From a virus (Duplodnaviria > Heunggongvirae > Uroviricota > Caudoviricetes), in the IMG/VR virus record IMGVR_UViG_2909314774_000001: 64,000 nucleotides of DNA, one strand, 5' to 3'. This document shows positions 1 through 27,800 of this stretch, one piece after another (positions within the stretch are counted from its first letter, which is position 1; every line of letters starts with the position of its first letter). Under the pieces are notes generated by a model that was not told where the DNA came from, made no database searches, and saw only the letters and a list, made by a program, of their open reading frames with translations. A program made the position numbers and the translations under genes.

Positions 1-2443
1 TGGCGTTAATAATGCGGAATTTATTTATGTGTACAATGGCAGTGATTACTCGCCAGGCTGGCGTCGTTCTTATAATACTAGAAACAAACCAACAGCTTCT
101 GATGTAGGAGCATTATCGCTTTCTGGAGGAGCGTTAACTGGCGGATTAACTGCTGCTGGCGAGATTATTTCAAAATCGGCGAATGGTCTGCGCATTGCCT
201 ACGGAAACTACGGATTCTTTATCCGAAACGATGGTTCAAGCACATACTTCATGTTGACCGATTCGGGTAACAGCCTGGGAACCTATAATAGTTTAAGGCC
301 GCTTATCATTAACAATGCCAATGGTGCTGTTAGGATCGGTAATGGACTCAATGTTACTGGCGGCATCAATGGTAGTTTGAACGGTAATGCTTCAACAGCT
401 ACGAAGTTGCAAACAGCGAGAAACATCAATGGTGTTAAGTTTGATGGTTCAGGCGATATCAATATTAATACATTGGTATCTCGTGGCCGAGTTACGGCGT
501 TAAGCGGCTCTACTCAAGGCACTGCTGGCATTCAAATGTATGAGGCGTACAACAATAGCTACCCGACCACGTATGGCAACGTATTGCACATGAAAGGTGC
601 GAGTGCTGCTGGTGAGGGCGAGTTGCTTATTGGCTGGAGCGGAACGGATGGTGCTCATGCACCGGTTTATGTTCGTTCACGCCGTGATACTTCGACAGCG
701 AATTGGTCTGGTTGGGCGCAGGTCTATACCACTGCTCATAAACCCACAGCGAAAGATGTTGGGGCTGCACAGACGTTTAGCGCGTCATACAGTACTGGGG
801 CTGGCAACTGGACTACCGCTGAATTTATCGCATGGCTGAAGGAGCGTGGTGCTTTCGCCGTACCGTATTGGATGATGAAAGGCTCTTGGTCATATGCCGA
901 CAATAAAATTATCACTGATACAGGTGTCGGCAATATTTGTCTTGCTGGTGCGGTTATCGAGGTTTTAGGTCACGAAGGCGCAATGACCATCCGAGTTACT
1001 ACGCCTACAACGACAACCGGAGGTGGTATTGCCAGTGCTCAGTTCACCTATATTAATCACGGTAGCGCGTATGCCCCTGCCTGGCGCAGAGATTACAACA
1101 CGACTCTCAAACCAACTGCGGCTGATGTTGGTGCGTTGCCGAGCGGTGGCGGCACACTTTCCGGCGCACTCACATTATCTATGGTTGCGCCGAGTGTTCA
1201 ATTACGAGGGCAAGGTACTGATACCAGGCAGTACATCATGGCTTACAGAACCGATGGTGCTACATCATGGTATGTAGGTAAGGCTAACAACGGCTCTGAT
1301 AGCGCGATGCTCTGGAACTATACGGGGGCAAACGGAGTCGAGTTGGCTGCCGATGGCAATGTGCGCATTAATGCGAAGGGTAAGCAGTTTACGTTCGCAA
1401 ACAACGGCAATTTGGGGCTTGTCGCTTCGTTGGATCAAAGTTCTGTTCCACAGGGCATTTACCATCAAGTTGCTATGAACTCTGGAACCAGAGGTGCTAA
1501 ATCCTATCTTCGTAAGTTCAGGGGTGGGAACGCAGATACCGTCTGGCATGAAACCGTTCAAGACGGAAATTACCGACTTGCTACTGGTGACACTGATTCT
1601 CAGGGTGAAATGTACCTTTCGACTTCGGGTTGGGTTCGTTTCCGTGGTGAAGTTGTTTCAGAATCGGCCAATGGTTTGCGAGCCGCATTCGGTAACTTCG
1701 GTTTCTTTATCCGAAATGATGGAACGAACACTTATTTCCTTTTGACAGCTTCAGGTGACAAGTACGGTTCTTGGAATGGTTTGCGGCCTCTGACTATCAA
1801 CAATGTCAGTGGCGCAGTGTCAATGAGCAACGGACTAACTGTTGCTGGTGGACTTAATGTAACGAGCGGAAACCTGAAAATCTCGACGTCCAGCACATCG
1901 TGGATCGACATGAGAGCAGGCGTAGCCCTTTCGAACTCTTCAGCTGTTTCGACGTCATCCGCTTCGGCGATAGTCCGTCAAGAACACGCCGATCGCCATT
2001 TCATTCTTGGCGGTTTGGGTAACTCGCAGTTCGGGATTTACATGATTAACAAATCTCGAACTGCGAACGGCACTGACGCTGCCGCTTATCTCCAGAACGA
2101 CGGCACTTGGGTTTGCGCAGGCAACGGTAGTTTTAATGACGTTTACATCCGTTCCGACCGCCGTAGTAAGCGCAATATTCGCAAAATTGAGCGGGCGCTC
2201 GACAAGCTGGAGCAGATCGAAGGTGTTCTCTACGAGATTCAGGTCTGTGGCCGTTATGAGCAGTCTGGTGGCCTCATCGCTCAGGATGTCCAGAATGTTC
2301 AGCCTGAACTGGTAACGGTCGACCATAACGATCAGTCAGGAGAGCCTCGTCTGCGTCTTAACTACAACGGCGTTATCGGCATGTTGGTTGAGGCTGTCAA
2401 AGAGCTGCGCGAGGAAGTGCGCGAACTGAAGGCAAAAATGTAA
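1..2443 (+). CDS. Tail fibre protein, 5'-partial at window edge, with C-terminal intramolecular chaperone (peptidase S74-like) domain
   Basis: Frame is open from nt 2, so the gene continues upstream. Internally duplicated modules (SANGLR[IA]A[YF]GN[YF]GFFIRNDG... twice; Y[SA]P[GA]WRR.YNT..KPTA.DVGA three times). C-terminus ...RSDRRSKRNIRKIE...LVEAVKELREEVRELKAKM resembles autocleaving chaperone domains of tail fibres and endosialidases. Confidence 0.8.
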   Translation, partial: GVNNAEFIYVYNGSDYSPGWRRSYNTRNKPTASDVGALSLSGGALTGGLTAAGEIISKSANGLRIAYGNYGFFIRNDGSSTYFMLTDSGNSLGTYNSLRPLIINNANGAVRIGNGLNVTGGINGSLNGNASTATKLQTARNINGVKFDGSGDININTLVSRGRVTALSGSTQGTAGIQMYEAYNNSYPTTYGNVLHMKGASAAGEGELLIGWSGTDGAHAPVYVRSRRDTSTANWSGWAQVYTTAHKPTAKDVGAAQTFSASYSTGAGNWTTAEFIAWLKERGAFAVPYWMMKGSWSYADNKIITDTGVGNICLAGAVIEVLGHEGAMTIRVTTPTTTTGGGIASAQFTYINHGSAYAPAWRRDYNTTLKPTAADVGALPSGGGTLSGALTLSMVAPSVQLRGQGTDTRQYIMAYRTDGATSWYVGKANNGSDSAMLWNYTGANGVELAADGNVRINAKGKQFTFANNGNLGLVASLDQSSVPQGIYHQVAMNSGTRGAKSYLRKFRGGNADTVWHETVQDGNYRLATGDTDSQGEMYLSTSGWVRFRGEVVSESANGLRAAFGNFGFFIRNDGTNTYFLLTASGDKYGSWNGLRPLTINNVSGAVSMSNGLTVAGGLNVTSGNLKISTSSTSWIDMRAGVALSNSSAVSTSSASAIVRQEHADRHFILGGLGNSQFGIYMINKSRTANGTDAAAYLQNDGTWVCAGNGSFNDVYIRSDRRSKRNIRKIERALDKLEQIEGVLYEIQVCGRYEQSGGLIAQDVQNVQPELVTVDHNDQSGEPRLRLNYNGVIGMLVEAVKELREEVRELKAKM

Positions 2444-2509
2444 TCAAGGTGAATGGTGAGGGGCCACCCTCACCAATTCAGGATATTCACATCAAAAAGG
2501 AGATTAGAT

Positions 2510-3292
2510 GTGCCAATTGTCGGTGTTCCCGGTTGGATTGGGTCTTCGGCTGTCAGTGTGACAGGCCAGAGATGGATGAGTGCGGCTCGAACGGCGGTGC
2601 AACTGCCAGCGGCTGGTTCAATGTCTCAAATGGCCGGGCGATCTAAAGAAGTTCAGTACAGCATCGGTGCGAATCATAACTACAACAAAGACACACTGAT
2701 CAACTATTTAAAATCCCAGGGGGCGACGCCAGTCGTTGTTACCATTACAGGGGATCTGGTGTCGTCCAGTAGCGGCGTGCCATGTTTAGATTTCCCGAGT
2801 TCACTTACCAACTCTTATATCAGCCTTGTAATCAACGCAGGTGTGACTGTCTATGGACGCGGTGGCAATGGTGGTAGTAACGCTGCCGGTGCTGCTGGTG
2901 GTAACGCAATTAATAATGGCATCGGTACACGCTTGCGTATTACGAATAATGGTGCAATCGCTGGAGGTGGCGGCGGCGGTGGCGGCGGTAACAGGGGTAA
3001 ACTAATATTTGGTGGTGGCGGTGGTCGCCCATTCGGTGCTGGTGGGTCTTCCTCTCATATGAGTTCCGGTGCAACTGCTGGTACTATTTCCGCTCCTGGT
3101 AAAGGATCTGTTGGTGAGGGGTCTCTTAGTGCATATACAGGCGGTTCGGGTGGTAATGTCGGTGCTGCTGGAGGAAGATGTAATACTCAAGGTAACGGTA
3201 CAGAATATAACGGCGGAGCAGCTGGTAAAGCCGTAACTGGCAACGCGCCTACATGGACTAAAGCTGGGGCAATTTACGGCGCTCATGTGTAA
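2510..3292 (+). CDS. gp38-like tail fibre adhesin with glycine-rich motifs
   Basis: N-terminus VGVPGWIGSSAV..TGQRWMS and repeated poly-Gly tracts (GGGGGGGGGN, GGGGG) resemble T2/S16-type gp38 adhesins. Start moved to in-frame GTG 2510, which has AAGGAG 8 nt upstream; the ORF-track ATG at 2453 overlaps the previous gene. Confidence 0.55.
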   Translation: MPIVGVPGWIGSSAVSVTGQRWMSAARTAVQLPAAGSMSQMAGRSKEVQYSIGANHNYNKDTLINYLKSQGATPVVVTITGDLVSSSSGVPCLDFPSSLTNSYISLVINAGVTVYGRGGNGGSNAAGAAGGNAINNGIGTRLRITNNGAIAGGGGGGGGGNRGKLIFGGGGGRPFGAGGSSSHMSSGATAGTISAPGKGSVGEGSLSAYTGGSGGNVGAAGGRCNTQGNGTEYNGGAAGKAVTGNAPTWTKAGAIYGAHV

Positions 3293-3366
3293 GTACTTAC
3301 CTACCAAGTGTGGGCGTTTTATGATATAAAACCGCCATCCCGATTTGACGATTCATGGAGGAAATA

Positions 3367-3690
3367 ATGTCGAACGAGATGGCAGGCGTAACGCCAGAGC
3401 AGGTAGAGCGCATTGCCGCTATCGTTGCGCGTGAAGTTGTCGGCAAATTAGGTAAGGAGTTGCGTGAGGAAATTGGCCAGGAGGTCAACGACCAGCTCAA
3501 AACCTACTTTGGCGATATGACGCCTTCGCAACACAGCATTCAGCACTCCAACCTGGACAAACTACTTAATCGGCTAGACGCCATCTCCAGCGGGTTCTTT
3601 GGCGGCATTATCTCAAAGATAACGTCGTTCCTGATTACCGCGCTGCTGCTGGGTCTGGCCGCTTATGGCGTGAAGAATGGACTGCAATAA
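3367..3690 (+). CDS. Small protein with C-terminal transmembrane helix, putative holin
   Basis: GGAGGA RBS 4 nt upstream of ATG 3367; single hydrophobic helix ITSFLITALLLGLAAYGV at the C-terminus; sits directly upstream of a lysis-like cluster. Confidence 0.35.
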   Translation: MSNEMAGVTPEQVERIAAIVAREVVGKLGKELREEIGQEVNDQLKTYFGDMTPSQHSIQHSNLDKLLNRLDAISSGFFGGIISKITSFLITALLLGLAAYGVKNGLQ

Positions 3691-4396
3691 CAGGAGATCA
3701 AGGATGAAAACTCCGAGAGGCATTCGTAATAACAACCCTGGCAACCTCGACAAAGGTTCGCCGTGGCAGGGGCTAATCGACAACCCTGCCGAACCGCGCT
3801 TTTGCACGTTTAAAGACCCTGTTTGGGGGATTCGTGCGCTGGCGGTGACTCTAATTACCTACCACGATAAACGTCGCGCAAAAGACGGCACAAGTATCGA
3901 TACCATTCGTGAAGTTATTGAACGTTGGGCACCGCCGAATGAAAACAACACTGACGCCTACATTAATGAGGTGTCTAAAGCCGTTGGTGTAACCGCAGAC
4001 ATGATCATCGATCTGCATGATTACGACATTCTTCGACCTTTGGTTGAGGCAATCATTCGCCATGAGAATGGGCGAGGTCCGCTAAAAACGCTGAACACCT
4101 GGTATGCGGCAGAAGTTATTGAGGAAGGTCTGCGTCGAGCTGGCGTCGTTAAGCCGGTGAAAACCGTGAAGGCTGTTCCTGTAACTAAAGAAACTGCAGG
4201 CGCAACTGTTACAGCAGGTATTGGTCTGGCGCAGCTGGCCGATGTTATGCCGCAGGTTTCCGCTGCTATGGATAAAGCACAAGGTCATATCTCTAGCGGG
4301 GATACAGTACGCATCATCTTCGGTATTGCCACTATTGTTGTGGCAGGATTCATTGCCTGGTCGCAGGTAAGAAAACACCAGAAAGGGATGGTCTAA
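3677..4396 (+). CDS. Putative cell-wall hydrolase / endolysin-like protein with C-terminal membrane anchor
   Basis: Conserved-looking N-terminal motif GIRNNNPGNL...W.G and a C-terminal TM helix (IIFGIATIVVAGFIAW); lies between the holin-like and spanin-like genes. Function is inferred from context only. Confidence 0.3.
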   Translation: MDCNNRRSRMKTPRGIRNNNPGNLDKGSPWQGLIDNPAEPRFCTFKDPVWGIRALAVTLITYHDKRRAKDGTSIDTIREVIERWAPPNENNTDAYINEVSKAVGVTADMIIDLHDYDILRPLVEAIIRHENGRGPLKTLNTWYAAEVIEEGLRRAGVVKPVKTVKAVPVTKETAGATVTAGIGLAQLADVMPQVSAAMDKAQGHISSGDTVRIIFGIATIVVAGFIAWSQVRKHQKGMV

Positions 4397-4397
4397 T

Positions 4398-4649
4398 ATG
4401 CTAGGCAGCCTGATGACAAAGCTAAAAGTTGCTTTGATTACGCTGGCTGCCGTTCTTTTCGTTCTTGTCGGCGCTTACACGATGGGCGGGAATGCGGCGC
4501 GACGAGCAATGGAAGAGAAGGCAAAACAGGAAGACAGAAAACGACTTCAAAACACAGTGAAAGTGGTGAATGAGACGAGCAGTAAAATACGTCAGAAAGA
4601 TGCTTCTGCCGTTCATCGTGAGTTGTATGATAAGTGGGTGCGTCATTAA
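4398..4649 (+). CDS. Putative i-spanin (Rz-like)
   Basis: N-terminal TM helix followed by a charged coiled-coil region; position immediately after the putative lysin. Confidence 0.45.
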   Translation: MLGSLMTKLKVALITLAAVLFVLVGAYTMGGNAARRAMEEKAKQEDRKRLQNTVKVVNETSSKIRQKDASAVHRELYDKWVRH

Positions 4650-4785
4650 ACCACAAACAGCCAGCGTGTTGTTCTGCGATGGGGCTGAGCCTATCTATAT
4701 CAGCAATAATGATGTAATGACTGAAGAAACCGAACGCCAAATCCTTTTTCACAATACGATGGGAGAGAGGGTTTGTGGTTGGTGA
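4570..4785 (+). CDS. Putative o-spanin lipoprotein (Rz1-like), overlapping the i-spanin in another frame
   Basis: Signal peptide with lipobox MISGC; small Cys-containing protein; overlapping arrangement is typical of Rz/Rz1 pairs. Confidence 0.4.
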   Translation: MRRAVKYVRKMLLPFIVSCMISGCVIKPQTASVLFCDGAEPIYISNNDVMTEETERQILFHNTMGERVCGW

Positions 4786-4817: not shown

Positions 4818-5339
4818 TTATTCTTCGAACAATTTTTCGATAGATTTTGTAGGATAGAACAAAGAACGCTCGTTGTTACCAACCAGCTGGATAAAGCCTA
4901 AACTTTTATAAAACGCCTTGGCTTTGTCATTTAACGCCTCAACGAAAAGTCCATGAATGCCTACAGCAAGAGATGCATTGTACACAACGCGCATTGCATG
5001 TGTTACAAGCATTGAGCCAAATCCTTGACCTTGAAGGGACTTGTCCAAAGCCAGCCTACCCAAAGTAACACTTGGAACATTCCGATAAGGAACCTTCTTT
5101 TGTTTGCTTCTTGAAGGTAAGGACTCCTTTTCAAAACAACTACCTGACAAAGTGTAATATCCTAACACTTTTGGCCTTTCTTCTTGAGTGCAAAGCACAT
5201 AAGCACGAAGAATTTTTCCCTCATGCTGCCTTTTTAAGTGGTTGGCTAAAAAGGCGTTTAGTGACTCTTCGCCGCAATCAAAACCGTTTAGATCATAATC
5301 TTTCTCTCCAGAGAAAATCTCTATCGTTGTATTGCTCAC
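4818..5339 (-). CDS. GNAT-family acetyltransferase toxin (TacT/AtaT-like)
   Basis: GNAT acetyl-CoA binding region (QGQGFGSML...); immediately downstream of a small RHH/DUF1778-like gene on the same strand, separated by 8 bp. Confidence 0.8.
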   Translation of the reverse strand: MSNTTIEIFSGEKDYDLNGFDCGEESLNAFLANHLKRQHEGKILRAYVLCTQEERPKVLGYYTLSGSCFEKESLPSRSKQKKVPYRNVPSVTLGRLALDKSLQGQGFGSMLVTHAMRVVYNASLAVGIHGLFVEALNDKAKAFYKSLGFIQLVGNNERSLFYPTKSIEKLFEE

Positions 5340-5346
5340 GAGTAAA

Positions 5347-5616
5347 CTACTCCATGCTTTTCAGACGATCAGCAGCTCGTTTCAGCTTGTCGTTCGGTGC
5401 CGGAGGATTGCTTATAGCGTCCATAACCAGATTCCAGGATTCTTCATTCAGAACTAGTCTACGGTGTTGCTCTATAACTTTCACGGCACGTTCAGATGCA
5501 CTGCTAACCATAAACTGAGTAATGCTCTGGTTAGACATTGCGGCAGCTTCCTCGATGATGCTTTTATCGTCATCGGTTAATCTCAAATCGATGCGCTGCT
5601 TTTTTAGTGCTGACAT
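5347..5616 (-). CDS. RHH/DUF1778-type antitoxin (TacA/AtaR-like)
   Basis: Start set at MSALKKQRIDLRLTDDDK with AGGAGG RBS upstream; partner of the downstream GNAT toxin. Confidence 0.75.
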   Translation of the reverse strand: MSALKKQRIDLRLTDDDKSIIEEAAAMSNQSITQFMVSSASERAVKVIEQHRRLVLNEESWNLVMDAISNPPAPNDKLKRAADRLKSME

Positions 5617-5934
5617 GTATTCCTCCTGATGGCCGTGATGTAGGAAGGCCATCAATCTCCTCTGTTCAAACTGAGTTTTCGACTCAAAAATTACTTTAAA
5701 AGGCTATAGCCCATTACGTGTGCATTATCAAATTGTGTACGGCATATCACCGTACTTGTAATATAGAGGTCATTGTTACTTTTTTCAACAGACAAATACA
5801 AGCTATGATTGCCAATTGTTAATCACAACCTACCATTTAACCTTTACACCGCAGCCGTAGGCATTTAGGCTATATCACATATAAGAAAACAAGTTGTTTC
5901 AGACGATAATTATATACGCAAAGGGAACTCTCCA

Positions 5935-7013: not shown

Positions 7014-8720
7014 ATGGAATCGATAGAAGTATTTTTAAAAAATTTTTTGGACTCAGATCATCGGGTTGCTGTCATAAAAGGAAATTGGGGAGTAGGTAAA
7101 ACGCATTATTGGAATAGCTTTTATACTAAACATTCTAAAAAATTAGATTTTAATGCATATTCATATGTTTCTTTGTTTGGAATAAATTCTATTGGAGACA
7201 TTAAAAAAGCTCTTTATCATTGTGCCACACCAATTAATGAAAAGAAATATAAAGAACTGATTTTATCTGAAACGGATCGAACTATGATTCGTTATAGAAA
7301 TGGGTTTTGGGGATGGTTGAAATACAACTCCTTGTCAAAATTTTTAATACATTTTGGAAAGAACGATTTTTTTGGGTTCAAAACTGATAATCTGCTGTCA
7401 TCTCTTGAGTATAAATTTGTTAATAATTATTTGGTTTGCATTGATGATATTGAACGAAAAGGTAGTGCGCTAGAAATTAAAGAGATTATGGGGGTAATTG
7501 ATGAGTTGGCAAGAAGAAAAAATTGCAAGGTTGTTCTAATATTAAATGAAGATAACTTACATGAAGAAACTGCACAACAACAGTTTTTAGAGTATAGAGA
7601 AAAAATAATTGATGTGGAAATAAAATACGATCCCACGCCTGAGAAAAACTTAAGAAAAGTTTTTTATGAGACTGACCCTGATTTTCTTTTGTTAAAAAAC
7701 CTAGTAAATGATTTAAACATCAAAAACATTAGAATATTAAATAAAATAAAATCATCTCTAGTTATATTTAGAGATGTGCTAAAGTTAGCAGAGGATAAGG
7801 TTAGAGAAAGTTTTATTAATAGATTGGTCTTATTTTCAGTGGTTTACTATTTTGGTGTTCCTAGCGTTGATTATGCTTCATTTAAGGAGTCAATCAAAAA
7901 TATACATGCATTCGACTATATGTTAGATGATAAAGATGAAAAGGAAGAAGTTAACTCTGTATATTCATTTGTTAATAGCCTTGATGTTATTTATGAACGA
8001 GCAGAAAGTGCTTTCGATGATGATATAGATTTTTACCTTAAGAACGGTTATGTTTCTTCTGAAAGCAATATTCTAAATATAATAAAAGAAAAAAATGAAC
8101 AATATAGAGATAATAGGGTTTTATGTGAGGTTTATAAAATTTGGGATGTTTTTAGAAACTCTTTTAAAGATAATGAATCAGAGTTTATTTTTCAAATTGA
8201 GCGCGTAATTAACGATAGTCTGTTGCGTATACCAATTGGACAGTTCGTAGGTTTAATAAATGTCCTAATTAAATTGGATAGAGATTGTAATAATATTATA
8301 GAGGCATATGCAGATGCTTTTGTTAATAAAGAAAATGCGTATGCTACATTTAATTCTTTGCGAGTAGAGATCTTCGGAAATGAAGAATTAGGTTTCAGAA
8401 TTGAAAAAAAATTGAAAGATAGAAATCCAGATGACTATAACTTAGATAAAATTATAAAAAAAATAGCTGGTGGAAGATTTAACCATAGTGATGTGAATAT
8501 TCTTAACAGTTTTTCTAAAGATGATTACGTAAACTGGATATTATCCTGTGATCAGGATGCTTTGAATTTAGTAGAAGAGACTATGCTCAAGTTCAAGGGT
8601 ATGCAACACCCGACAGACGAACAGAAGAGCATCACTGATAAAGCAATAGAAGCTTTGGAGGAAGTTGCTTCAAAATCAACACTTAATAAGCTGCGTGTTA
8701 ATAAAATACTCAATCATTAA
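7014..8720 (+). CDS. KAP-family P-loop NTPase (PifA-like)
   Basis: Walker A GNWGVGKT at residues 22-29 and Walker B LVCIDDIERK; the gene is markedly more AT-rich than its neighbours. Confidence 0.65.
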   Translation: MESIEVFLKNFLDSDHRVAVIKGNWGVGKTHYWNSFYTKHSKKLDFNAYSYVSLFGINSIGDIKKALYHCATPINEKKYKELILSETDRTMIRYRNGFWGWLKYNSLSKFLIHFGKNDFFGFKTDNLLSSLEYKFVNNYLVCIDDIERKGSALEIKEIMGVIDELARRKNCKVVLILNEDNLHEETAQQQFLEYREKIIDVEIKYDPTPEKNLRKVFYETDPDFLLLKNLVNDLNIKNIRILNKIKSSLVIFRDVLKLAEDKVRESFINRLVLFSVVYYFGVPSVDYASFKESIKNIHAFDYMLDDKDEKEEVNSVYSFVNSLDVIYERAESAFDDDIDFYLKNGYVSSESNILNIIKEKNEQYRDNRVLCEVYKIWDVFRNSFKDNESEFIFQIERVINDSLLRIPIGQFVGLINVLIKLDRDCNNIIEAYADAFVNKENAYATFNSLRVEIFGNEELGFRIEKKLKDRNPDDYNLDKIIKKIAGGRFNHSDVNILNSFSKDDYVNWILSCDQDALNLVEETMLKFKGMQHPTDEQKSITDKAIEALEEVASKSTLNKLRVNKILNH

Positions 8721-8728
8721 TAGATTAT

Positions 8729-8791
8729 GACCTGCTTCCGTATGTATTTAATAAGTTACTTATTATTTGTATATACAGAAGCAGGTCTTTT
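8729..8791. terminator. Long palindromic element / putative bidirectional terminator
   Basis: Stem GACCTGCTTC...GAAGCAGGTC enclosing an AT-rich loop, then TTTT; a near-twin sits at 56152-56226. Confidence 0.5.
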
Positions 8792-8901
8792 AAAGACACC
8801 CACCAGAACAAGTCCCTTCCGTTTCCACTTCCAAAAACTGCCACCAGTCGCTATCATCCGCTCATTGTGATAAGTAAGTAACTACCTACCAGGTGAGCCA
8901 C

Positions 8902-9642
8902 ATGAGCCAAATCTTTTTCGATACCATCGACAACGACCAGTACGACTTCATGACAGAGTGGAATACCGCTGTTATGGACAAGTGGGTTGCTGAAAACATT
9001 GGTTTGTCGCGCTGCAAAGACGAGGCTGAACTGTTTGAGACGAAGTGGTTTGATTACCGCGATATGCATCCTCTCATGGCCACCTGTCTGTTTACGGAGG
9101 CATACAAACGTCAGTACTCAAATATCATGCTGACGCACGGTCGTGAACACTTTGAAACAGCTCCGTTCACCACCGGGTTAAAACGCTTGCCTTATCAGGA
9201 GTTGTCGACTGCTAATAAAACGTCGCTATGGAAAGCACGCCAGTTTGCGGATCGCTATTGCTGCTCATACGACTACTTTATCTCCACTGTTCTTTCCGCA
9301 GCTGCACGACGTCTGTGGGACAAGCTGCCTCGCCCACAGCATTTGTGGCAGCCAGAACTGATTGAGATATTTGAAGAGAAATTAGCCAGACGCGCAACAA
9401 CCCGTCTGGATGACTCTCTGGTTAGCTTTAAGCATATGGGAGACATGCAGTTCAACCCGATTCAGGAAAGCTATTTTGAGTGGATTCTGGAGCGTTTGCG
9501 CACCATCCCTCGCAGCAAGCGCATACGCGCAATTTTCTCCGCTATCTGGCTAATGGAAATCGTTCCAGAGCGCCTTATTTCCGACCACTTTCCAGAAGAA
9601 CTGGAAGAAGCACGGCGGTTTATTGATCCCCTATCTAATTAA
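8902..9642 (+). CDS. Hypothetical protein
   Basis: ORF with AGGTGA RBS 5 nt before ATG 8902; no recognisable motifs. Confidence 0.5.
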   Translation: MSQIFFDTIDNDQYDFMTEWNTAVMDKWVAENIGLSRCKDEAELFETKWFDYRDMHPLMATCLFTEAYKRQYSNIMLTHGREHFETAPFTTGLKRLPYQELSTANKTSLWKARQFADRYCCSYDYFISTVLSAAARRLWDKLPRPQHLWQPELIEIFEEKLARRATTRLDDSLVSFKHMGDMQFNPIQESYFEWILERLRTIPRSKRIRAIFSAIWLMEIVPERLISDHFPEELEEARRFIDPLSN

Positions 9643-16424: not shown

Positions 16425-16499
16425 GATGGTGTAGCTCAGCGGTAGAGCAGTTGGCTGTTAACCAACTGGTCGGTGGTTCGAATCCACCCACCATCGCCA
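16425..16499 (+). tRNA. tRNA-Asn (anticodon GTT)
   Basis: Hand-folded cloverleaf: acceptor GATGGTG/CACCATC, anticodon loop CTGTTAA, T-loop GGTTCGAATCC, 3' CCA encoded. Confidence 0.85.
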
Positions 16500-16504
16500 A
16501 TTTA

Positions 16505-16591
16505 GGGGAGTTAGTCCGTAGGGGCAGCGGGGTAGACTGTAAATCTACTGTCATTGCGACTCGGGTGGTTCGACTCCATCACTCCCCACCA
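16505..16591 (+). tRNA. tRNA-Tyr (anticodon GTA), class II with long variable arm; D-arm non-canonical
   Basis: Acceptor GGGGAGT/ACTCCCC, anticodon arm GTAGA-CTGTAAA-TCTAC, T-loop TTCGACT, CCA encoded; the D-arm would not fold canonically by hand. Confidence 0.6.
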
Positions 16592-16595
16592 AATT

Positions 16596-16671
16596 GCCGG
16601 TTTAGCTCAGTTGGTAGAGCGCCTGCCTTGTAAGCAGGATGTCAGCGGTTCGATCCCGTTAACCGGCACCA
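16596..16671 (+). tRNA. tRNA-Thr (anticodon TGT)
   Basis: Acceptor GCCGGTT/AACCGGC, D-arm GCTCAGTTGGTAGAGC, anticodon loop CTTGTAA, T-loop TTCGATC, CCA encoded. Confidence 0.85.
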
Positions 16672-16762
16672 ACACAACAGGTAAGAGCATTGGGCGAATC
16701 GGCGATACTGACCACAAGCCCGTAAATCGATAGAGTCAGACCAGTGCTCTTACCGTTGTGAG
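16672..16762. repeat. Long imperfect hairpin C (candidate structured RNA)
   Basis: Arms CAACAGGTAAGAGCATTGG / CCAGTGCTCTTACCGTTG, ~47 nt loop; begins right after tRNA-Thr. Confidence 0.5.
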
Positions 16763-16807
16763 GAAGTGCAGCTCTTTGAAGCAACCAGAAGATAAGCATC
16801 TGGCTTC

Positions 16808-16892
16808 ACAACACAACGATAAGATCATTACGGTTAATCGTCGTTCATGTGCACAATGACTGGTCGAAAGGTAGTGATCTTACCGTTGTGAT
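16808..16892. repeat. Long imperfect hairpin D (candidate structured RNA)
   Basis: Arms CAACGATAAGATCA / TGATCTTACCGTTG, ~48 nt loop. Confidence 0.5.
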
Positions 16893-16990
16893 GAATGCAC
16901 AGGCTGATGTGCCGCAACTACAGTAGTGCGCGCTTTGCGGGGCTTGCTACAACCCTGTGTCGGAGTTCAGCACCGACCATCACAATAGCT

Positions 16991-17074
16991 GGAGAGTAGG
17001 GAGCATGGTGCTCAAGCGGTCTTGAAATCCGTCCCATTGTGCAAACGATGATGGTTCGATTCCATTACTCTCCG
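16991..17074 (+). tRNA. tRNA-Ser (anticodon TGA), class II; D-arm and anticodon stem imperfect
   Basis: Acceptor GGAGAGT/ACTCTCC with discriminator G and CCA; anticodon loop CTTGAAA; T-loop TTCGATT; long variable arm. Confidence 0.55.
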
Positions 17075-17075
17075 C

Positions 17076-17157
17076 CAGACACAGCGTTGAGCGGTTTGGC
17101 CTTTTAATCAACCAGATTAAGACTCCGCTAACATAAACCAGACCGCTCAACGCTGTG
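17076..17157. repeat. Long imperfect hairpin E (candidate structured RNA)
   Basis: Arms ACAGCGTTGAGCGGTTTGG / CCAGACCGCTCAACGCTGT, ~38 nt loop; directly after tRNA-Ser. Confidence 0.5.
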
Positions 17158-21210: not shown

Positions 21211-23319
21211 ATGTCTAAAAAACGTTCCATCAAAGAGGTTCAGGACTTCCGTGACAGTGTAAAACGAGTAGTCGCTCTCCTTTCAGGTAAAAACATCCCT
21301 GTTGCAGAACGAGGGGACGACGCTTATGTACGCTATAACGATGATGGAGAGCCAATTCTCGTAAACATCCCATCAATCCCGGATAACGCAACACCGGCAT
21401 TGATGAATGCTGTGCGCGGATTTCTCGATCATGAGGTTGCTCACATTTTGTTTACCGATATTCGTGTGTCCAACAAAATGAGAGAAAAAGGACGCGTTCC
21501 TTCCTGGTCGCTATGGAATGCCTTAGAAGACGTGTTCATCGAGCGAAAAATGGGTCAGGTCTTTAACGGAACAAGACGTAATCTGATGGCAACTCAGCGC
21601 CTTATAATCGAAAAAGTCTTTAAACCAAAGGCTTCAGAGGCTATTGCTTATTGTGGCAAAGATCAGCGCGCGCTTTTTCTAAACTTCTTTCTCTGTCCGG
21701 TTGTAAGAGCCTGGGATGGCCAAGCACCGTTCGTAGATTTCATGGATGAATATTGGCCTGTCATTGAGAAACCAATTTCATTATTAAAAGAACATGGTAT
21801 CGATGTGGCCGTGCGTAACATGTCTTGCACCGAGGATTGTGTAAAGGTGGCTGCGACCATAGCTAAGATCCTCAAAGACACTGAAAGTGAAAGCAAAGGT
21901 AAGGAGTCAGCTCCGGGAAAAACTTCCGATCCTTCAGACGCTGACCAGACGGATGCCTCTGGAGAAAACAATGAAGACAACGAAGATCATGAGACACCCT
22001 CATCGTTAGATAATCACAAATCTATTAAATCAGAGTCACATAGTAAGCACAAACATGATAATAACGACAGTGATGATTCAGATAATCCTGAATCATCAGA
22101 AACAATATTCGATGATACAGAAAATGATAAAGCGGTATCAGATTCTGATGCTTCTGATAACGCGGCGTCAGAATCATTAACCGCTGACCACGAAAAAAGA
22201 AAAACGACAGAAGACGGCTCTTCAGACATTCCAACTCCGTCAAAAATGAGTCTGGAAGAGGCTTTAGAGGAGTTGGATAGCATGGAAGATGAAGTCGGAG
22301 GCATGACAGAAGATGCGCTATCCGAAACGATTAAAAGCGAGTTAACAGAAAGCTCGAAAAGCGAATACAGGCCATACAATCGCTCATACGACTTCATCGG
22401 CTCGATTGATCAGGCAGAAGCCCATATCAAACGGCTTATTAAAACATTCTCCGATATTGATTTAGGTGGATATCCAATCAGCCGTTATCGCATCGTTCCT
22501 GAAGGCAACCAACTCTTCGACAAATATATTGAAAAGCACCTTTCGTCAGGTGTTTCGTCGACGCTGGCAAAAGACCTGGAACGTGCAATAGCAAGCAGAA
22601 ACAGAGTTCAGTTTATACCTGGCCAGCGTCGGGGGCGCATTCATGGTTCAAGTATCTACAGATTAACAATGAATGATGATCGCGTGTTTCGTAAAAAAGA
22701 AGAATCTAAAGCCGTTAACGCCTGTGTTCAACAAGTGATTGATTTATCGGGTTCAATGAGTGGCGAAACGATAAAACTAGCTCTTGCAAGTGCATATACC
22801 ATCGCCGATGCACTTGATCGAATAAATGTTCCCAACATTATCACCGGCTTCACTACATTTGGCAGTCATATGGCAGCAGGAGAACTTAAGGCTATCAAAT
22901 ATGAGTTCTCTCGCTTTGAATCTTTAATGCTACCTATCATCAAAAATTGGAATGAAAAAGCAAATTCTCGCGAAGTTCGCTCACGTATGGGGTGCGTAGG
23001 CTACACATTCCCACTTCTTAATAACGTGGATGGTGAAAGCATAGCCAGCCTTGCATCGTTATTTTCCGGTCGCTTGGAGGACAGGAAGATCATGCTTGTT
23101 CTGAGCGATGGCGCGCCGTGGGCTGTTGGGAGAGGTTTTGACGCCCATTTGCGTTCGGTTACGAAGCAAATTGAAACGCAGACTGACATTGATTTGATGG
23201 CAATTGGCATCATGACTGATGCACCGGAGAGATTTTACGCAAATCATGCCCTGGTAACTAGTGTTGATAGTCTTGGTTCATCTGTAGTTACTGAACTATC
23301 TCGTATCATTTTGAAGTAA
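21211..23319 (+). CDS. von Willebrand factor A domain protein (CobT-like) with long acidic Ser/Asp-rich disordered insert
   Basis: MIDAS motif DLSGSMSG in the C-terminal half; central ~110 residue low-complexity acidic segment. Confidence 0.65.
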   Translation: MSKKRSIKEVQDFRDSVKRVVALLSGKNIPVAERGDDAYVRYNDDGEPILVNIPSIPDNATPALMNAVRGFLDHEVAHILFTDIRVSNKMREKGRVPSWSLWNALEDVFIERKMGQVFNGTRRNLMATQRLIIEKVFKPKASEAIAYCGKDQRALFLNFFLCPVVRAWDGQAPFVDFMDEYWPVIEKPISLLKEHGIDVAVRNMSCTEDCVKVAATIAKILKDTESESKGKESAPGKTSDPSDADQTDASGENNEDNEDHETPSSLDNHKSIKSESHSKHKHDNNDSDDSDNPESSETIFDDTENDKAVSDSDASDNAASESLTADHEKRKTTEDGSSDIPTPSKMSLEEALEELDSMEDEVGGMTEDALSETIKSELTESSKSEYRPYNRSYDFIGSIDQAEAHIKRLIKTFSDIDLGGYPISRYRIVPEGNQLFDKYIEKHLSSGVSSTLAKDLERAIASRNRVQFIPGQRRGRIHGSSIYRLTMNDDRVFRKKEESKAVNACVQQVIDLSGSMSGETIKLALASAYTIADALDRINVPNIITGFTTFGSHMAAGELKAIKYEFSRFESLMLPIIKNWNEKANSREVRSRMGCVGYTFPLLNNVDGESIASLASLFSGRLEDRKIMLVLSDGAPWAVGRGFDAHLRSVTKQIETQTDIDLMAIGIMTDAPERFYANHALVTSVDSLGSSVVTELSRIILK

Positions 23320-23414
23320 TTAAAACAGCCTTAATGATAAGTAACTACTTACCATAGTTAATGGTATATTTATATAAGAACTTGAACGCTCATTAGAGAA
23401 CAAAGGAAAAGCGC

Positions 23415-24650
23415 ATGACTACTACTGCACTGCAAAATGATAAAAATCCTTCTGATTACCTTGTTTGCAAGTGGTGCGGCAAATCATTTCACTATTTTAA
23501 GTCCCATGTAGCCAATGGTAATTGCGAGGGCATTCCTGAGTCAGTAAAAGATGCCGATCCTGACACCGTACTGAAAATGTACACAACGCAGTTTCCAGAT
23601 GAACCAACGCTATCGAAAAAGGCACTTGATGCAATTCAAGCTAAACGTGCCGAGCAAAAAAGCGAAATGGCGAAATCTTCTGGCTTGACCAGTAGCCCAG
23701 GCTACACAGGCACAGTTGAGTACAAGACAGATCTGGTCGCAGCTCACGAACTGCTAAACGTAACGGTGGAAGAACTCGGAACAAAACGTGGGACGCCGCT
23801 CATGGTTAGCGTCAACGTCAATACGCCGTATCCAGAGTTCGTTCCAGAAGTGAAGAAGGGCTACGTATATGGCGACTTCGAACTGATCAAAGATATTTTC
23901 ATGATGCTTGAACTTGGCATACCTGGCTATTTGTGGGGTCATGCAGGAACAGGCAAATCGTCATTGCCTACACAGCTATGTGCTTTGCTCAATCGTCCGT
24001 TGATCCGTGCCCAACATACAGCATCAATGGAAGAGGCACATGTTACGGGGCAAATTCTGGCGCGTGATGGCTCTACGTATTTCGAGCCTGGCTTGCTTGC
24101 GCTCGCAATGAAGCATGGCTGGGTTTACCTCGCGGATGAATACGACTTTGCGTTTCCACAAATTCTTGGCGTGTATCAGCCAGTGCTGGAAGGTGAGGCG
24201 TTGGTCATCAAAGAGGCAACTCCAGAATGGCGTCGCATTACTCCGCATGAACGGTTTGCTTTCATTGGCACTGGCAACACAAACGGTTCTGGTGATGAAA
24301 CCGGCTTGTACCAGGGTACAAACATCCAGAACGCCGCGAACTTTTCACGTTTTGGCATCGTTTCGAATGTGAAATACATGAGCAAAGAGGCAGAGATCAA
24401 CATGTTGATAAATGCCGGCATCGTGGATGAATACGCTGAAAAGATGGTTAAGTTTGCCGGTATCGTTCGCGATGGATATGAAGAACACCTTATCAGCCAG
24501 CCAATTGGGCCTCGTGAGCTTTTGTTGTCGGCCAAGATTGGAATGATGCGAGGCGACTTTGTGACAGGTATTGAGCGTTCTTTCATTAACAAACTCCCTT
24601 CAGCTTCTGCGCAAGCGGCTCGTGAAGTTGTTCAAAAAATATTTGGTTAA
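23415..24650 (+). CDS. AAA+ ATPase (CobS/MoxR-like)
   Basis: Walker A GHAGTGKSS and Walker B VYLADEYD; adjacent to the VWA protein, the usual pairing. Confidence 0.7.
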   Translation: MTTTALQNDKNPSDYLVCKWCGKSFHYFKSHVANGNCEGIPESVKDADPDTVLKMYTTQFPDEPTLSKKALDAIQAKRAEQKSEMAKSSGLTSSPGYTGTVEYKTDLVAAHELLNVTVEELGTKRGTPLMVSVNVNTPYPEFVPEVKKGYVYGDFELIKDIFMMLELGIPGYLWGHAGTGKSSLPTQLCALLNRPLIRAQHTASMEEAHVTGQILARDGSTYFEPGLLALAMKHGWVYLADEYDFAFPQILGVYQPVLEGEALVIKEATPEWRRITPHERFAFIGTGNTNGSGDETGLYQGTNIQNAANFSRFGIVSNVKYMSKEAEINMLINAGIVDEYAEKMVKFAGIVRDGYEEHLISQPIGPRELLLSAKIGMMRGDFVTGIERSFINKLPSASAQAAREVVQKIFG

Positions 24651-24652
24651 TC

Positions 24653-24856
24653 GTGCGTAAAGGATGTTTCGGCTCTCTTATCGCTGCTTCTGAAACTGGC
24701 AAGGCTTGTCTGGGGTGTCCAGACAAGCCCGATTGTCACCAATCAGCAAAAGAAGTTGCGATTTCGATGTATGGGAAGTTCGTAGGCTTCCCCAATGACA
24801 AAATCAAAAAAACCAGAAAGGTAAAAACACATGAAGGCACTGATGGTTCGAACTGA
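24653..24856 (+). CDS. Small Cys-rich protein
   Basis: 67-codon ORF with C..C...C pattern; overlaps the start of the polymerase gene. Confidence 0.35.
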   Translation: MRKGCFGSLIAASETGKACLGCPDKPDCHQSAKEVAISMYGKFVGFPNDKIKKTRKVKTHEGTDGSN

Positions 24857-27800
24857 CTTCTCACTTGGGGAGTCGGCTCTAAAAGCAGAAAACGCGGTGA
24901 AGATTGCCAGAGAAGCTGGCTACACCGCTGTAATTTCAGCAGATAGCATGAATATTGCAAGTGTTATTCCACTACAACGTGCCGCTGGTGACGACATGGC
25001 GGTTATTTGTGGTGTGAAACTAAACATTGTTGATGATCCCACATACGAGCACCGGGCTAAACTTGCTAAAGAATCTATGAGATGTATGGAATCATTAGAG
25101 CGGGGACGTAACTACTCGTTTACCGCTCTAATTAAAAATGAGCAAGGATATCGCGACATCTGCGAACTAATGACGGCGGCCAACACACGAGAACAGTTCT
25201 ACTTTGTACCGCGTCTCTCGCTCGAACAGTTGGTTTCTACATATGCCAAAGGCAACATCATCCTGCTTACTTCCGACATCGGTAGCGTGTTCCAACGCAA
25301 CGATTTTGCAAAAATCATAAGCACACTGATTACAGCGGGTGGAAAAGACAACTTCTATAGTGTGGTTTATCCGCACCCTACCCCATTCTACGACCAGATT
25401 AACGTCCGGGCGATGAAAGTCGCCAGCGCATTGAAAATAGAGCCAGTGGCGTTCTATCCCGCTTATTACGAATCGATCGACGATGCAGACATTAAAGACA
25501 TTGCGCACATGGTTACGAACAACATCAAAATCGACCAGCCGCATCGTCTGCGTATCCCCCACCAGCGAGATAACGCCGTCAATGGTCGCCGCCATCTCCT
25601 TGAGGCGCTTAAAGCCTTCTCCGTTCGCATGGATGTGCCGGTAACAGCTGCAATGGCCTCAACAACGCAGGATACCATTATCGATGCCTGCACATGGCGC
25701 TGGCATGAATTGCCGCCAGCACTGCCAAAGATGGCAGACGACGAGCCTGCAACGCTTATGAAACTGGCTGTTGCAGGGCTGCGTAAACGTCTTACCACAA
25801 AAGAGTTTGGCTACACACCACCTGCTTCTGAGAACAGGGTTTATGTTGAGCGGCTAAAGTACGAAATGGACACGCTGACTCGCCTGGGATTTTGTGGTTA
25901 CTTCCTGATGGTACGCGATCTGATGAATCATAGTCGTGAAACTGGCATTCCCGTTGGGCCTGGTCGTGGTTCCTCTGCCGGTTCTCTGGTGGCGTGGTGC
26001 ATAGGCATAACCAACGTCGACCCAATCCGTCACGGTCTTCTGTTTGAGCGTTTCATCAACCCTGAGCGTCTCGACTTGCCGGATGCGGACTTGGACTTCA
26101 GCCAGGCACGTCGCCATGAGGTGATCGAGTATCTGAATGAACGCTACGGCGAAGATTACGTTGCGGGTATTCCGAACTTCACCTACCTGGGCGCAGCCTC
26201 TGCACTACGTGATACCGCTCGTATTTATGGTGTGGAGTCCGCAGATATGGCGGTATCAAAAGAACTGAAGAACGCTGAGGATGATAGCCTTCCATTGGAA
26301 GAACTGCGCGAACAACTGGCAAGTCTCGACAAATACGCAACAAAATATCCTGATGCATTCAATGCAGCCTGCAAGTTACAAAGCCTTATGCGTGGCTTTG
26401 GTAGACATGCGGCAGGGATGATCGTAGCAGGTGTTCCTCTGACAGAACGTACACCGGTTGAGCGCCGTGGTGACGCGCGTTGTATCGCATTTGACAAGCG
26501 TTACTGCGAGGCTATGGGCCTAATTAAGCTGGACGTGCTTGGCCTGGCAACTCTCGATTTGCTCGATAGTGCAAAACGCTACATAAAAGAGAACACAGGT
26601 GAAGATATCAATCTTGATGCCATTTCTCTTGAAGATCGCAAGGTGCTGGATGGTTTTGCTGCTGGGTACACTCAAGGTGTTTTCCAGCTTGAATCAGGCC
26701 CAATGCGCAAGCTGCTTAAAGATTTAGGTGGTGGAATTGAGCCAATGAGCTTTAAAACGGTCGTCGCTACAACTGCGCTCTTCCGGCCGGGGCCAATTCA
26801 ATCAGGCATGTTGGATGACTATGTTTCTGTCGCCAAAGGCTTTATGACGCCGGAATCATTACACCCCGTTCTTGATGAACTTACCGCGGAAACAAATGGC
26901 GTGATTCTCTATCAGGAACAGACGATGAACGCGACTCGATTGCTTGCCGGCTTCACAATGGCTGAAGCTGACGCTGTGCGTTCCGCAATCGGTAAGAAGA
27001 ACATGGAAAAAATGAAGAGCATGGGCGAGAAGTTCATCGTTCAGGCTCAAGCTGGCTGGATAGACGTTGAGCTGGAAGATGGCACTACACAGCGCATTCA
27101 CCGTGCGGAACATTTTAAATGCGAAGACGGAACTCTGAAAACTGTCGAAGAGGCACTTGAGCACGGCGCAAAACTACCTATAAACGCAGTACGCGTTACA
27201 GCGTCACATCCAGGGCTATCAGAGATGAAAGCGAAGGAGATCTGGACCGCATTTGAGAAAAACGGAGCCTATCAGTTCAATAAATCACACTCCGTTGCTT
27301 ATTCTTTAATCAGTTATCAGTCTATGTGGCTAAAGACGCACTACCCTGCTGAGTTCTTCGCAGCTGCGCTCACCATTCTGGGCGAGGATAAGCATCAGGG
27401 GCTGGTGAAGGATGCGCTGACCTATGGCATTCGCGTATTGCCACCAGACGTTAATGTGTCATCTAACCGAATTGAGATCCGCACACTCGAAGACGGCAGT
27501 CAGGCACTGTATGCGCCATTCTCTGCTGTGAAAGGCTGTTCTGAAAATGGTTGTCAGGCAATTATGCGTGCGCGTGAGAAAGTTGGTGGCAAATTCGAGT
27601 CAGTGGCACAATTCGATGAAGCGGTCGAGAAGCGTGCATGTAACAGTCGTGTACGCGAGTCGCTTCATAAAGTAGGGGCTTTTGCGTCAATTGAGCCAGG
27701 CAGTCTTCCAGCAACTGATCCTGAACGACTGCGCGACCAGGCTGAGCTGATGGGCAATCTCATCATTGACGCTGTTAAAGCATCACGTCCGTTCGAAATG

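Follow-up and report, generated by a model that had tools for sequence, protein, structure and literature searches.

The distal tail fiber and gp38-type adhesin of an SSU5-like phage-plasmid resemble a T-even fiber tip and share a receptor-binding segment with T-even phages

Does a tail fiber that ends in an intramolecular chaperone domain, and yet is followed by a separate Gly-rich adhesin gene, combine two receptor-binding strategies of different phage groups? This was the original prediction for positions 1 to 3,292 of a 64,000-nucleotide stretch of viral (Caudoviricetes) DNA, hereafter the window, in which all features given with coordinates below lie on the plus strand. The fiber, its chaperone domain, and the Gly-rich gene all lie where they had been predicted, with corrections that include the start of the adhesin gene at GTG 2510. 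However, no combination of strategies was found: a chaperone followed by gp38 is the normal tip of the T2/S16/RB49 type. The locus very probably encodes the receptor-recognizing distal end of the side tail fiber of an SSU5-like phage-plasmid, built like the tip of a T2/S16-type long tail fiber. T-even phages canonically combine a self-cleaving fiber chaperone with a gp38 cap, so that the finding is real but ordinary and already known, and the gene pair leaves the current understanding of such fibers unchanged. The sole mildly new point is the near-identity of the receptor-binding segment of the adhesin to T-even phage DNA.

The carrier is an SSU5-like (pHCM2-type) temperate phage-plasmid of Escherichia coli. 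Region 1-3400 is 93% identical to an IncFIB plasmid of ∼112 kb, with a gene order common to this region and SSU5. In total, 426 plasmids match, most of them non-mobilizable and, among the matches listed, typically 105 to 125 kb in length. The window further encodes ParA, a DnaB-like helicase, a primase-like protein, the DNA polymerase III alpha subunit, and CobT. A lysis cassette (3355..4785) follows the adhesin gene and consists of a holin-like gene (3355-3690), an endolysin gene (3677-4396), and genes for Rz/Rz1-like spanins (4398-4649 and 4570-4785), with matches to phrog_5093, phrog_873, phrog_1026, and phrog_1275 in the same order as in SSU5_026-030. Salmonella phage SSU5 differs in having three extra genes before the holin, encoding an outer membrane protein, a membrane associated protein, and Cor. 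A consensus scan for terminators yielded a weak hairpin after gp38 (3300..3314) that carries no evidence of function; the two sites found, against 0.8 expected by chance, are near the chance level. A promoter scan of 2300-3500 found none.

The fiber gene is truncated by the left edge of the window. Its reading frame (frame 2) continues from base 2 without interruption to the stop codon at 2441-2443, so that the window holds the 3' part of the gene (2..2443), 813 codons plus the stop, with the 5' part beyond the edge. A full-length homolog encoded by plasmid pYLMB30c comprises 1,809 amino acids (aa), of which residues 993-1809 correspond to the fragment at 92.5% identity, and the whole fiber is roughly 1,800 aa long. 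Segments of the fragment are 76 to 81% identical to SSU5_021, and its best PHROG match is the tail fiber family phrog_22609. With the 5' half of the gene beyond the edge, only the 3' part can be read for intactness, and the module might be a decayed remnant, carried by a defective plasmid prophage, that no longer makes a working fiber. In addition, a 227-aa minus-strand gene is called inside the fiber region in two related contigs, one of which has no called fiber gene, and the gene table of PLSDB, which is known to be incomplete, lacks the pYLMB30c fiber. Such decay is nevertheless unlikely: within the window, neither the 813 fiber codons nor the 260 gp38 codons are interrupted, the catalytic motif and the glycine-rich motifs are intact, as are the downstream lysis genes, and the pYLMB30c fiber open reading frame (ORF) is itself uninterrupted.

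The fiber was predicted to carry internal duplicated modules, and self-comparison of the protein bears this out. The query segment was masked in the subject for this comparison, as plain self-BLAST returned only the diagonal. A Gp34_trimer-like shaft module is present in two copies, copy A at 158..370 (residues 53-123) and copy B at 1646..1858 (residues 549-619), that are 65% identical (E = 8e-30); copy B also matches the T4 gp34 structures 5nxh and 4uxe (E = 1e-22) and the phage Mu S structure 5yvq. A second duplication relates residues 2-84 to residues 343-425 (41% identity, E = 1e-17). Furthermore, residues 54-425 of the fragment are a diverged copy of a super-module that lies upstream, outside the window (40% identity over 375 aa, E = 3e-66). 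Pfam recognizes three Gp34_trimer stretches in the fragment above the curated cutoff. At the DNA level, searches of 1-3400 for direct, inverted, and tandem repeats found none beyond runs of glycine codons; thus, the module copies are too diverged to show as DNA repeats, which indicates that the duplications are old.

Two domains are common to the fiber and the tail fiber protein S of Mu. A globular module (623..1138, residues 208-379), which lies within the super-module of ∼370 aa duplicated upstream of the window, matches residues 151-330 of the Mu tail fiber S/S' structure 8ju3 (E = 8e-55). The distal shaft and tip of the mature fiber (1640..2152, residues 547-717), the putative docking platform for gp38, match residues 268-445 of Mu S in 5yvq (E = 7e-56). 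The homology ends at about Mu residue 430 to 445, so that the last ∼60 residues of the 504-aa Mu S have no counterpart in the fiber; instead, the chaperone follows directly where the homology ends. An AlphaFold monomer model of the shaft (residues 601-717) is of low confidence, as expected for a trimeric fiber modeled as a monomer, and was left out of the reading of the docking surface. A Mu/P2-type fiber that needs a separate, U-like Tfa protein was also considered and rejected, as the downstream gp38, holin-like protein, endolysin, and spanins match no Tfa family.

The extreme C terminus of the fiber is an intramolecular chaperone of the Peptidase_S74 family (PF13884), spanning 2153..2440 (residues 718-813, 96 aa). 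The profile search that had been proposed placed both this domain and the gp38 domains above the curated cutoffs, with Peptidase_S74 matching residues 718-772 of 813 at 44.4 bits (cutoff, 22). The same region matches the chaperone part of S16 gp37 in 6f45_A (E = 9e-13). In the AlphaFold model, it has pLDDT values of 88 to 96, with the terminal helix at residues 188-212 of the modeled fragment, and Foldseek matched it to the intramolecular chaperone domain of MyRF (7dc3; target-normalized TM score of 0.60, root mean square deviation [RMSD] of 3.4 Å) and also to the endosialidase chaperone (3gw6). As judged from the model, the fiber C terminus thus has the chaperone fold, in which a mixed alpha/beta domain leads into a long C-terminal helix of the kind that forms the trimeric coiled coil.

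The predicted autocleavage site is Arg717^Ser718 (2150..2155), in NDVYIR^SDRRSK. The predicted catalytic pair, Ser718 and Lys723 (S718-D-R-R-S-K723), has a +5 spacing, with conservation of at least 90% for each of the two residues across 24 homologs. The DVYIR of the fiber matches the strand that precedes the cleavage site of T-even gp37, for which the motifs DVYIR^SDGRLKI and DLNVS^SDRRIKK are described (PMC7917993); the cleavage motif DVYIR^SD.R.K is the same in the window fiber. The spacing also equals that of the catalytic pair of T5 pb1, Ser1264/Lys1269 (PMC4690869). The chaperone is predicted to be released once the fiber trimerizes.

The downstream gene, a gp38 adhesin gene of the T2/S16 type (2510..3292, 260 aa), lies directly downstream of the fiber gene, whose stop codon is at 2441-2443; it starts with GTG and is preceded, 7 nucleotides before its start codon, by a Shine-Dalgarno sequence, AAGGAG (2497..2502), read from the sequence. 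An upstream ATG (2453) was rejected as the start, given that the homology to T-even gp38 begins exactly at GTG 2510; a start equivalent to GTG 2510 is annotated in related plasmids in RefSeq. The prediction of a separate gp38-type Gly-rich adhesin was confirmed. The protein matches the Pfam families GP38 (PF05268; 236.3 bits, E = 5e-70) and Gp38_N (PF21721; 54.5 bits, E = 1e-14), both with a cutoff of 25, as well as phrog_2056 (E = 3e-92), and aligns over its full length with S16 gp38 (6F45_D, E = 4e-47); it also matches 9v85 (E = 5e-37). Its AlphaFold model (pLDDT of 91.8) superimposes on 6F45_D with TM scores of 0.81/0.85 and an RMSD of 2.8 Å and on 9v85 with a target-normalized TM score of 0.88, which points to the three-domain fold of S16 gp38: a helical attachment domain, a beta-helix, and a polyglycine sandwich. 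The glycine runs are invariant across 43 homologs, and the intervening segments are variable. Thus, the downstream ORF does show gp38 similarity and the fiber C terminus does show the chaperone fold, the two features on which the prediction had been made to depend.

The exact gp38 sequence occurs in hundreds of public contigs, always in the context of SSU5-like phage-plasmids, where it is annotated as "receptor-recognizing protein." This RefSeq name is not traceable to an NCBIfam model, as NCBIfam gave no match for gp38, nor for the fiber, the holin-like protein, or the endolysin. In the literature, SSU5 and gp38 were found together in one reference list only, and none of the papers searched was found to discuss gp38 in SSU5-like elements. 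Several database records label homologs "distal long tail fiber assembly catalyst," wording inherited from T4 gene 38, as though the protein were an assembly chaperone of the T4 type that is absent from the virion. However, the gp38 of the window has the complete architecture and fold of the S16/PP01 gp38 adhesins, the sequence of T4 gp38 is very different (PMC6851490), and the fiber already has a folding chaperone of its own, all of which makes an assembly role exceedingly improbable.

The order of the two genes is that of S16 gp37-gp38 (6F45) and of T2, T6, RB49, and PP01, in which an S74-ended fiber is followed by gp38. In the vast majority of T-even-like phages, gp37 has a self-cleaving chaperone domain, after the removal of which a gp38 monomer attaches (PMC9569957); in S16, gp37 loses its last 113 residues by autocleavage, exposing the docking surface for gp38 (PMC7917993). 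For example, in the 1302-residue gp37 of the Tequatrovirus Bas45 (Escherichia phage PaulHMueller), Peptidase_S74 spans residues 1204-1261, and gp38 comes next; likewise, the pseudotevenvirus EC-F2 shows the same architecture by sequence similarity to its fiber and downstream protein. The likeness to S16 extends to the gp38 domains (attachment helices, beta-helix, and polyglycine sandwich) and the invariant Gly-rich motifs. Conversely, the carrier is a temperate phage-plasmid of ∼110 kb rather than a virulent phage of the Straboviridae of 165 to 180 kb, the part of the fiber shaft that precedes the cleavage site is similar to Mu S and T4 gp34 rather than to S16 gp37, and gp38 has a serine in place of its third docking tryptophan.

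Two independent strategies, in which the processed fiber tip would bind a receptor itself and gp38 would add a separate specificity, find some support in phages outside the T-even group. T5 pb1 and the K1F endosialidase share with the fiber the Peptidase_S74 domain, the Ser/Lys(+5) pair, and the release of the chaperone after trimer folding, but their chaperone immediately follows a receptor-binding or enzymatic domain (PMC4690869), which forms the matured tip, with no gp38 cap. Moreover, the stretch of the window fiber that precedes the chaperone shares homology with part of Mu S, which binds its receptor without gp38. Against this, the S74-then-gp38 layout serves one strategy in T-even phages (PMC7917993, PMC9569957), and the last ∼60 residues of Mu S are replaced by the chaperone. 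SSU5 021/022 have the same genome type and gene order, with an S74-containing fiber followed by a protein with Gp38_N, and the fiber tip and chaperone (residues 620-813, a stretch of 194 residues of which 620-717 belong to the tip) are 81% identical; nevertheless, the adhesin heads are completely different, as SSU5_022 has only 178 aa and an unrelated head (phrog_1121) in place of the polyglycine sandwich. A tip conserved to this extent beneath unrelated heads suggests a docking platform rather than a receptor-binding site, and independent receptor binding by the fiber is accordingly quite improbable.

The favored reading, a T2/S16-type tip, implies the following sequence of events. The fiber protein would trimerize with the aid of its C-terminal 96-residue intramolecular chaperone (Peptidase_S74); once the triple-stranded tip is folded, Ser718, activated by Lys723, would cut the Arg717-Ser718 bond, and the chaperone would leave. 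One gp38 monomer could then use its N-terminal three-helix attachment domain to dock on the trimeric end thus exposed, and its polyglycine sandwich would present the hypervariable loops that bind the host receptor, predicted to be OmpA. The domain identities, folds, catalytic motif, and gene order, as well as the mosaic origin of the receptor-binding segment described below, are direct results; the cleavage, the docking, and the receptor are inferred.

The attachment domain (2510..2635, residues 1-42; Gp38_N) is the variant of the sampled SSU5-like plasmids, and its DNA is only 50 to 70% identical to that of T-even phages. In S16 gp38, three conserved tryptophans at the helix tips insert into pockets of gp37 (PMC6851490). 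Trp9 and Trp22 are invariant in the 43 homologs, and the third conserved aromatic position is Ser37 in the window. The other SSU5-like plasmids that were examined have Ser or Asn at this position, RB49-type phages and EC-F2 have Tyr, and most T-even phages, like SSU5_022, have Trp. As the stretch preceding the cleavage site is akin to Mu S and not to the S16 gp37 tip, the docking surface would differ from that in 6F45. Both departures from S16 count against the favored reading. The docking of an SSU5-like gp38 with two of the three canonical tryptophans on a Mu-S-like tip might represent a variant of the trimer-to-monomer joint.

OmpA is the predicted receptor of gp38, because the protein shares identical loop sequences with T-even phages that depend on OmpA. 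The C-terminal half of the protein is ∼97% identical to the gp38 proteins of Bas45 and JSE, with identical loops between the glycine runs. Bas45 depends on OmpA, as do RB49-like phages (PMC9569957). However, gp38 of the RB49 type can also use some O antigens, and in one study, OmpA failed to complement spontaneous resistant mutants (PMC9569957), so that OmpA may not be the whole story. If the prediction holds, the pair of fiber and gp38 would indicate which cells can be infected, namely, E. coli displaying OmpA. Such knowledge is useful because phage-plasmids of the SSU5-like family can carry resistance genes; one study reports 60 phage-plasmids with 184 resistance genes (PMC9600943).

The remark that fiber tips are often mosaic was correct, and the receptor-binding segment of gp38 is itself of mosaic origin. 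This polyglycine-sandwich segment (2867..3232, gp38 residues 120-241) is 97.5% identical in nucleotide sequence to Bas45, including perfectly matching runs of 161 and 98 nucleotides, and shares an exact run of 235 nucleotides with phage 310Ecol104PP, whereas the identity of the flanking gp38 DNA to T-even phages is 50 to 75%. Bas45 gp38 is 85% identical overall to the gp38 of the window, with ∼97% protein identity across the segment but only 50 to 75% DNA identity in the N-terminal attachment and beta-helix parts; the fibers are only 30% identical over the distal part. The GC content at third codon positions (GC3) of the segment is 0.27, similar to T-even phages, compared to 0.51 for 2510-2866. 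Together, the nucleotide identity and the T-even-like GC3 point to a recent cross-family exchange of the receptor-binding segment. As to its direction, the GC3 suggests that the phage-plasmid took the segment from a virulent T-even phage, and such an acquisition, through recombination inside the conserved glycine-rich motifs, appears somewhat favored.

In that case, a single pool of exchangeable OmpA-binding segments would be common to the temperate SSU5-like phage-plasmids resident in E. coli and the lytic Straboviridae, and resident phage-plasmids could donate or receive host-range determinants during T-even superinfection. The shared segment would be a clean natural case of adhesin swapping across phage families and lifestyles, with bearing on host-range engineering and on possible changes in the specificity of therapeutic T-even phages. 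Among plasmids of E. coli and Shigella, 19 carry the segment at an identity of at least 96%.

An open frame (frame 2, plus strand) extends from base 2 up to a stop codon at 2441-2443; its 813 codons form the 3' portion of a tail-fiber gene starting beyond the left window edge; residue numbers refer to this fragment. The homologous fiber of pYLMB30c comprises 1,809 amino acids, and the fragment aligns to its residues 993-1809 with 92.5% identity. Pfam detected three Gp34_trimer stretches, a gp37_trimer region and a Peptidase_S74 domain (718-772), all over the curated cutoffs. Matches to solved structures make the fragment a patchwork: residues 208-379 match the Mu tail fiber S/S' (8ju3; E 8e-55), 547-727 match Mu S (5yvq; E 7e-56), 545-630 match T4 gp34 (E 1e-22), and 690-812 match the C-terminal region of S16 gp37 within the gp37-gp38 structure 6F45 (E 9e-12). 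The internal duplications proposed from the sequence were borne out by protein matches within the fragment and upstream of the window. Residues 53-123 and 549-619 share 65% identity, residues 2-84 and 343-425 share 41%, and residues 54-425 repeat, at 40% identity, a super-module that lies upstream, beyond the window edge. Because a repeat search of the DNA found no DNA-level repeats left between the copies, the duplications are old. A globular mid-fiber module (623-1138, plus strand), homologous to Mu S residues 151-330, has one further copy upstream, outside the window. In two contigs with an identical gp38, a 227-amino-acid minus-strand gene is called within the expected fiber region (L012, 1746-2429; L015, 1440-2123) and possibly represents an insertion disrupting or remodeling the fiber; no fiber gene is called in L012, and L015 encodes a shorter fiber of 1,224 amino acids.

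At the beginning of the S74 match, the surrounding sequence is NDVYIR-SDRRSKRNI. S16 gp37 is cut at DLNVS^SDRRIKK, which has been aligned with DVYIR^SDGRLKI of other T-even phages (PMC7917993); the window fiber has this gp37 cleavage motif as well. In T5 pb1, Lys1269 activates the scissile Ser1264, which lies 5 residues upstream (PMC4690869); the predicted counterparts of this pair are Ser718 and Lys723, both conserved to 90% or more among 24 aligned homologs. An AlphaFold model of residues 601-813 (pLDDT 88-96 across the chaperone part) matched the MyRF intramolecular chaperone domain (7dc3) and the endosialidase chaperone (3gw6) in Foldseek, so that the chaperone fold expected at the fiber C-terminus is present in the predicted structure.

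The fiber stop is separated by a 66-nt spacer from the gp38 adhesin gene, which comprises 260 codons from a GTG at 2510 to 3292, with AAGGAG at 2497-2502 and 7 nt between this motif and the start. A longer open reading frame from ATG 2453 was rejected as the gene because homology to T-even gp38 begins at the GTG and RefSeq annotation of related plasmids gives the same 783-nt gene. The gp38-like nature of this glycine-rich product is clear: it scored 236 bits against Pfam GP38 and 54.5 bits against Gp38_N, and aligned end to end both with S16 gp38 (6F45_D; E 4e-47) and with the receptor-binding domain of PP01 gp38 (9v85; E 5e-37). A model built on an alignment of 43 homologs (pLDDT 91.8) superposed on 6F45_D with TM scores of 0.81/0.85 and an rmsd of 2.8 Å. 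In the alignment, the glycine-rich motifs are invariant and the intervening segments are variable.

The original prediction held that a self-cleaving chaperone followed by gp38 combines strategies of different phage groups. The observation was confirmed and its interpretation is partly supported; the claim of combined strategies fails, as the pairing is the standard T2-type design. In the vast majority of T-even-like phages, gp37 carries a self-cleaving chaperone, after which a gp38 monomer attaches (PMC9569957). Direct inspection of the Tequatrovirus Bas45 placed Peptidase_S74 at residues 1204-1261 of the 1,302-residue gp37, followed by the gp38 gene; the Pseudotevenvirus EC-F2 has a similar fiber followed by a gp38-like protein, and in Salmonella phage SSU5 a fiber with S74 precedes a protein that starts with Gp38_N. 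The fiber-tip mechanism is the known T2/S16-type cleave-then-cap, and the pair is already known at the family and annotation level, since gp38 is annotated everywhere as "receptor-recognizing protein."

The carrier is a temperate SSU5-related phage-plasmid rather than a T-even myovirus; of the 758 matching phage records, nearly all among the matches listed are Straboviridae of 160 to 180 kb. Over its full length, the region shares 93% identity with a non-mobilizable E. coli IncFIB plasmid of ∼112 kb. The 426 plasmid records that it matches are overwhelmingly non-mobilizable and, among the matches listed, mostly 105 to 125 kb; it also matches SSU5 and Escherichia phage CMS-2020a. The gene order is that of SSU5: tail protein, fiber, adhesin, holin-like gene, endolysin and spanins, then partition and replication genes. 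The exact 260-amino-acid gp38 occurs in 235 blocks of a public assembly collection, with the same context in all four contigs shown, and the gene is present in 34 of 5,426 complete E. coli genomes, plasmid-borne in 33 copies of the 34.

Other differences from the textbook case make the system a variant in detail, not a new kind. The fiber segment preceding the cleavage site shares homology with Mu S instead of the S16 gp37 tip. Of the three docking tryptophans of S16, the third is replaced by serine or asparagine in the gp38 proteins examined from SSU5-like plasmids. The same fiber segment is 81% conserved with SSU5 despite unrelated adhesin heads, consistent with a conserved docking platform that accepts exchangeable adhesins. 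Because the SSU5 adhesin SSU5_022 (7701-8237 of the SSU5 locus) and the window gp38 have only Gp38_N in common, the SSU5 head being an unrelated 138 amino acids (phrog_1121), the family swaps whole heads on a conserved fiber tip. Between adhesin and holin, SSU5 carries three genes (8281-9388), whose annotations name an outer membrane protein, a membrane associated protein and a Cor superinfection exclusion protein, whereas the window has just a 62-nt spacer (3293-3354).

The DNA identity of gp38 to T-even phages is uneven along the gene. It is 50 to 75% over 2510-2866 and ∼67% in the final 60 nt, but over 2867-3232 it reaches 97.5% to Bas45, with exact runs of 161 nt and 98 nt, 92% to JSE and 89 to 90% to RB49; phage 310Ecol104PP shares a 235-nt exact run. 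The Bas45 value falls within the range (95.9 to 100%) of 19 E. coli and Shigella plasmids with the same segment. GC3 is 0.27 in the segment versus 0.51 in the 5' part of gp38, and T-even gp38 genes have ∼0.26 to 0.36 in both parts. Other SSU5-like plasmids (Citrobacter, Enterobacter, some E. coli) combine the same backbone with different segments of GC3 ∼0.35 to 0.45. The left junction falls on the first glycine-rich motif and the right one on the conserved GGAAGKAVTGNAP stretch close to the C-terminus; a passage in PMC3157838 summarizing Tetart and colleagues maps exchanges among T-even phages to these same places. The pattern is most simply read as a segment recently imported by recombination from a T-even phage into gp38 of the phage-plasmid, the direction being suggested by codon composition only. 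That phage families would exchange a receptor-binding segment in this way is modestly interesting. Unlike other SSU5-like copies, gp38 of the E. coli plasmid pYLPI6a (1201-1986 of its locus) has low GC3 (0.25 to 0.41) over its whole length; a larger share of that gene may be T-even-derived.

The window gp38, Bas45 and JSE have identical loops between their glycine motifs. Bas45 needs OmpA, as complementation confirms (PMC8594841), and ompA deletion, likewise complemented, blocks RB49-like phages, for which some O antigens are also usable (PMC9569957). Given these identical loops and the OmpA dependence of Bas45 and RB49-like phages, we lean toward OmpA as the predicted receptor, with fair but limited confidence.

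Elsewhere in the window, a toxin-antitoxin pair on the minus strand (4818-5655; GNAT acetyltransferase toxin, 4818-5339; TacA-like antitoxin, 5347-5655) lies where SSU5 has other genes. A 568-amino-acid KAP-family P-loop NTPase (7014-8720, plus strand; Pfam E 8e-6; phrog_4740) sits in an island of 28 to 30% GC directly after parA/parB-like genes. Related plasmids have either a DUF2971 protein there or, on the opposite strand, a protein weakly matching a Pfam GIY-YIG domain (LEM-3_GIY-YIG); the position looks like a variable accessory or defense slot. Four clustered tRNA genes (Asn-GTT, Tyr-GTA, Thr-TGT and Ser-TGA) occupy 16425-17077 on the plus strand. Finally, a CobT-like VWA protein (21211-23319) and a full DNA polymerase III alpha subunit (24831-28349), both typical of SSU5-like elements, are encoded on the plus strand within 21211-28349.
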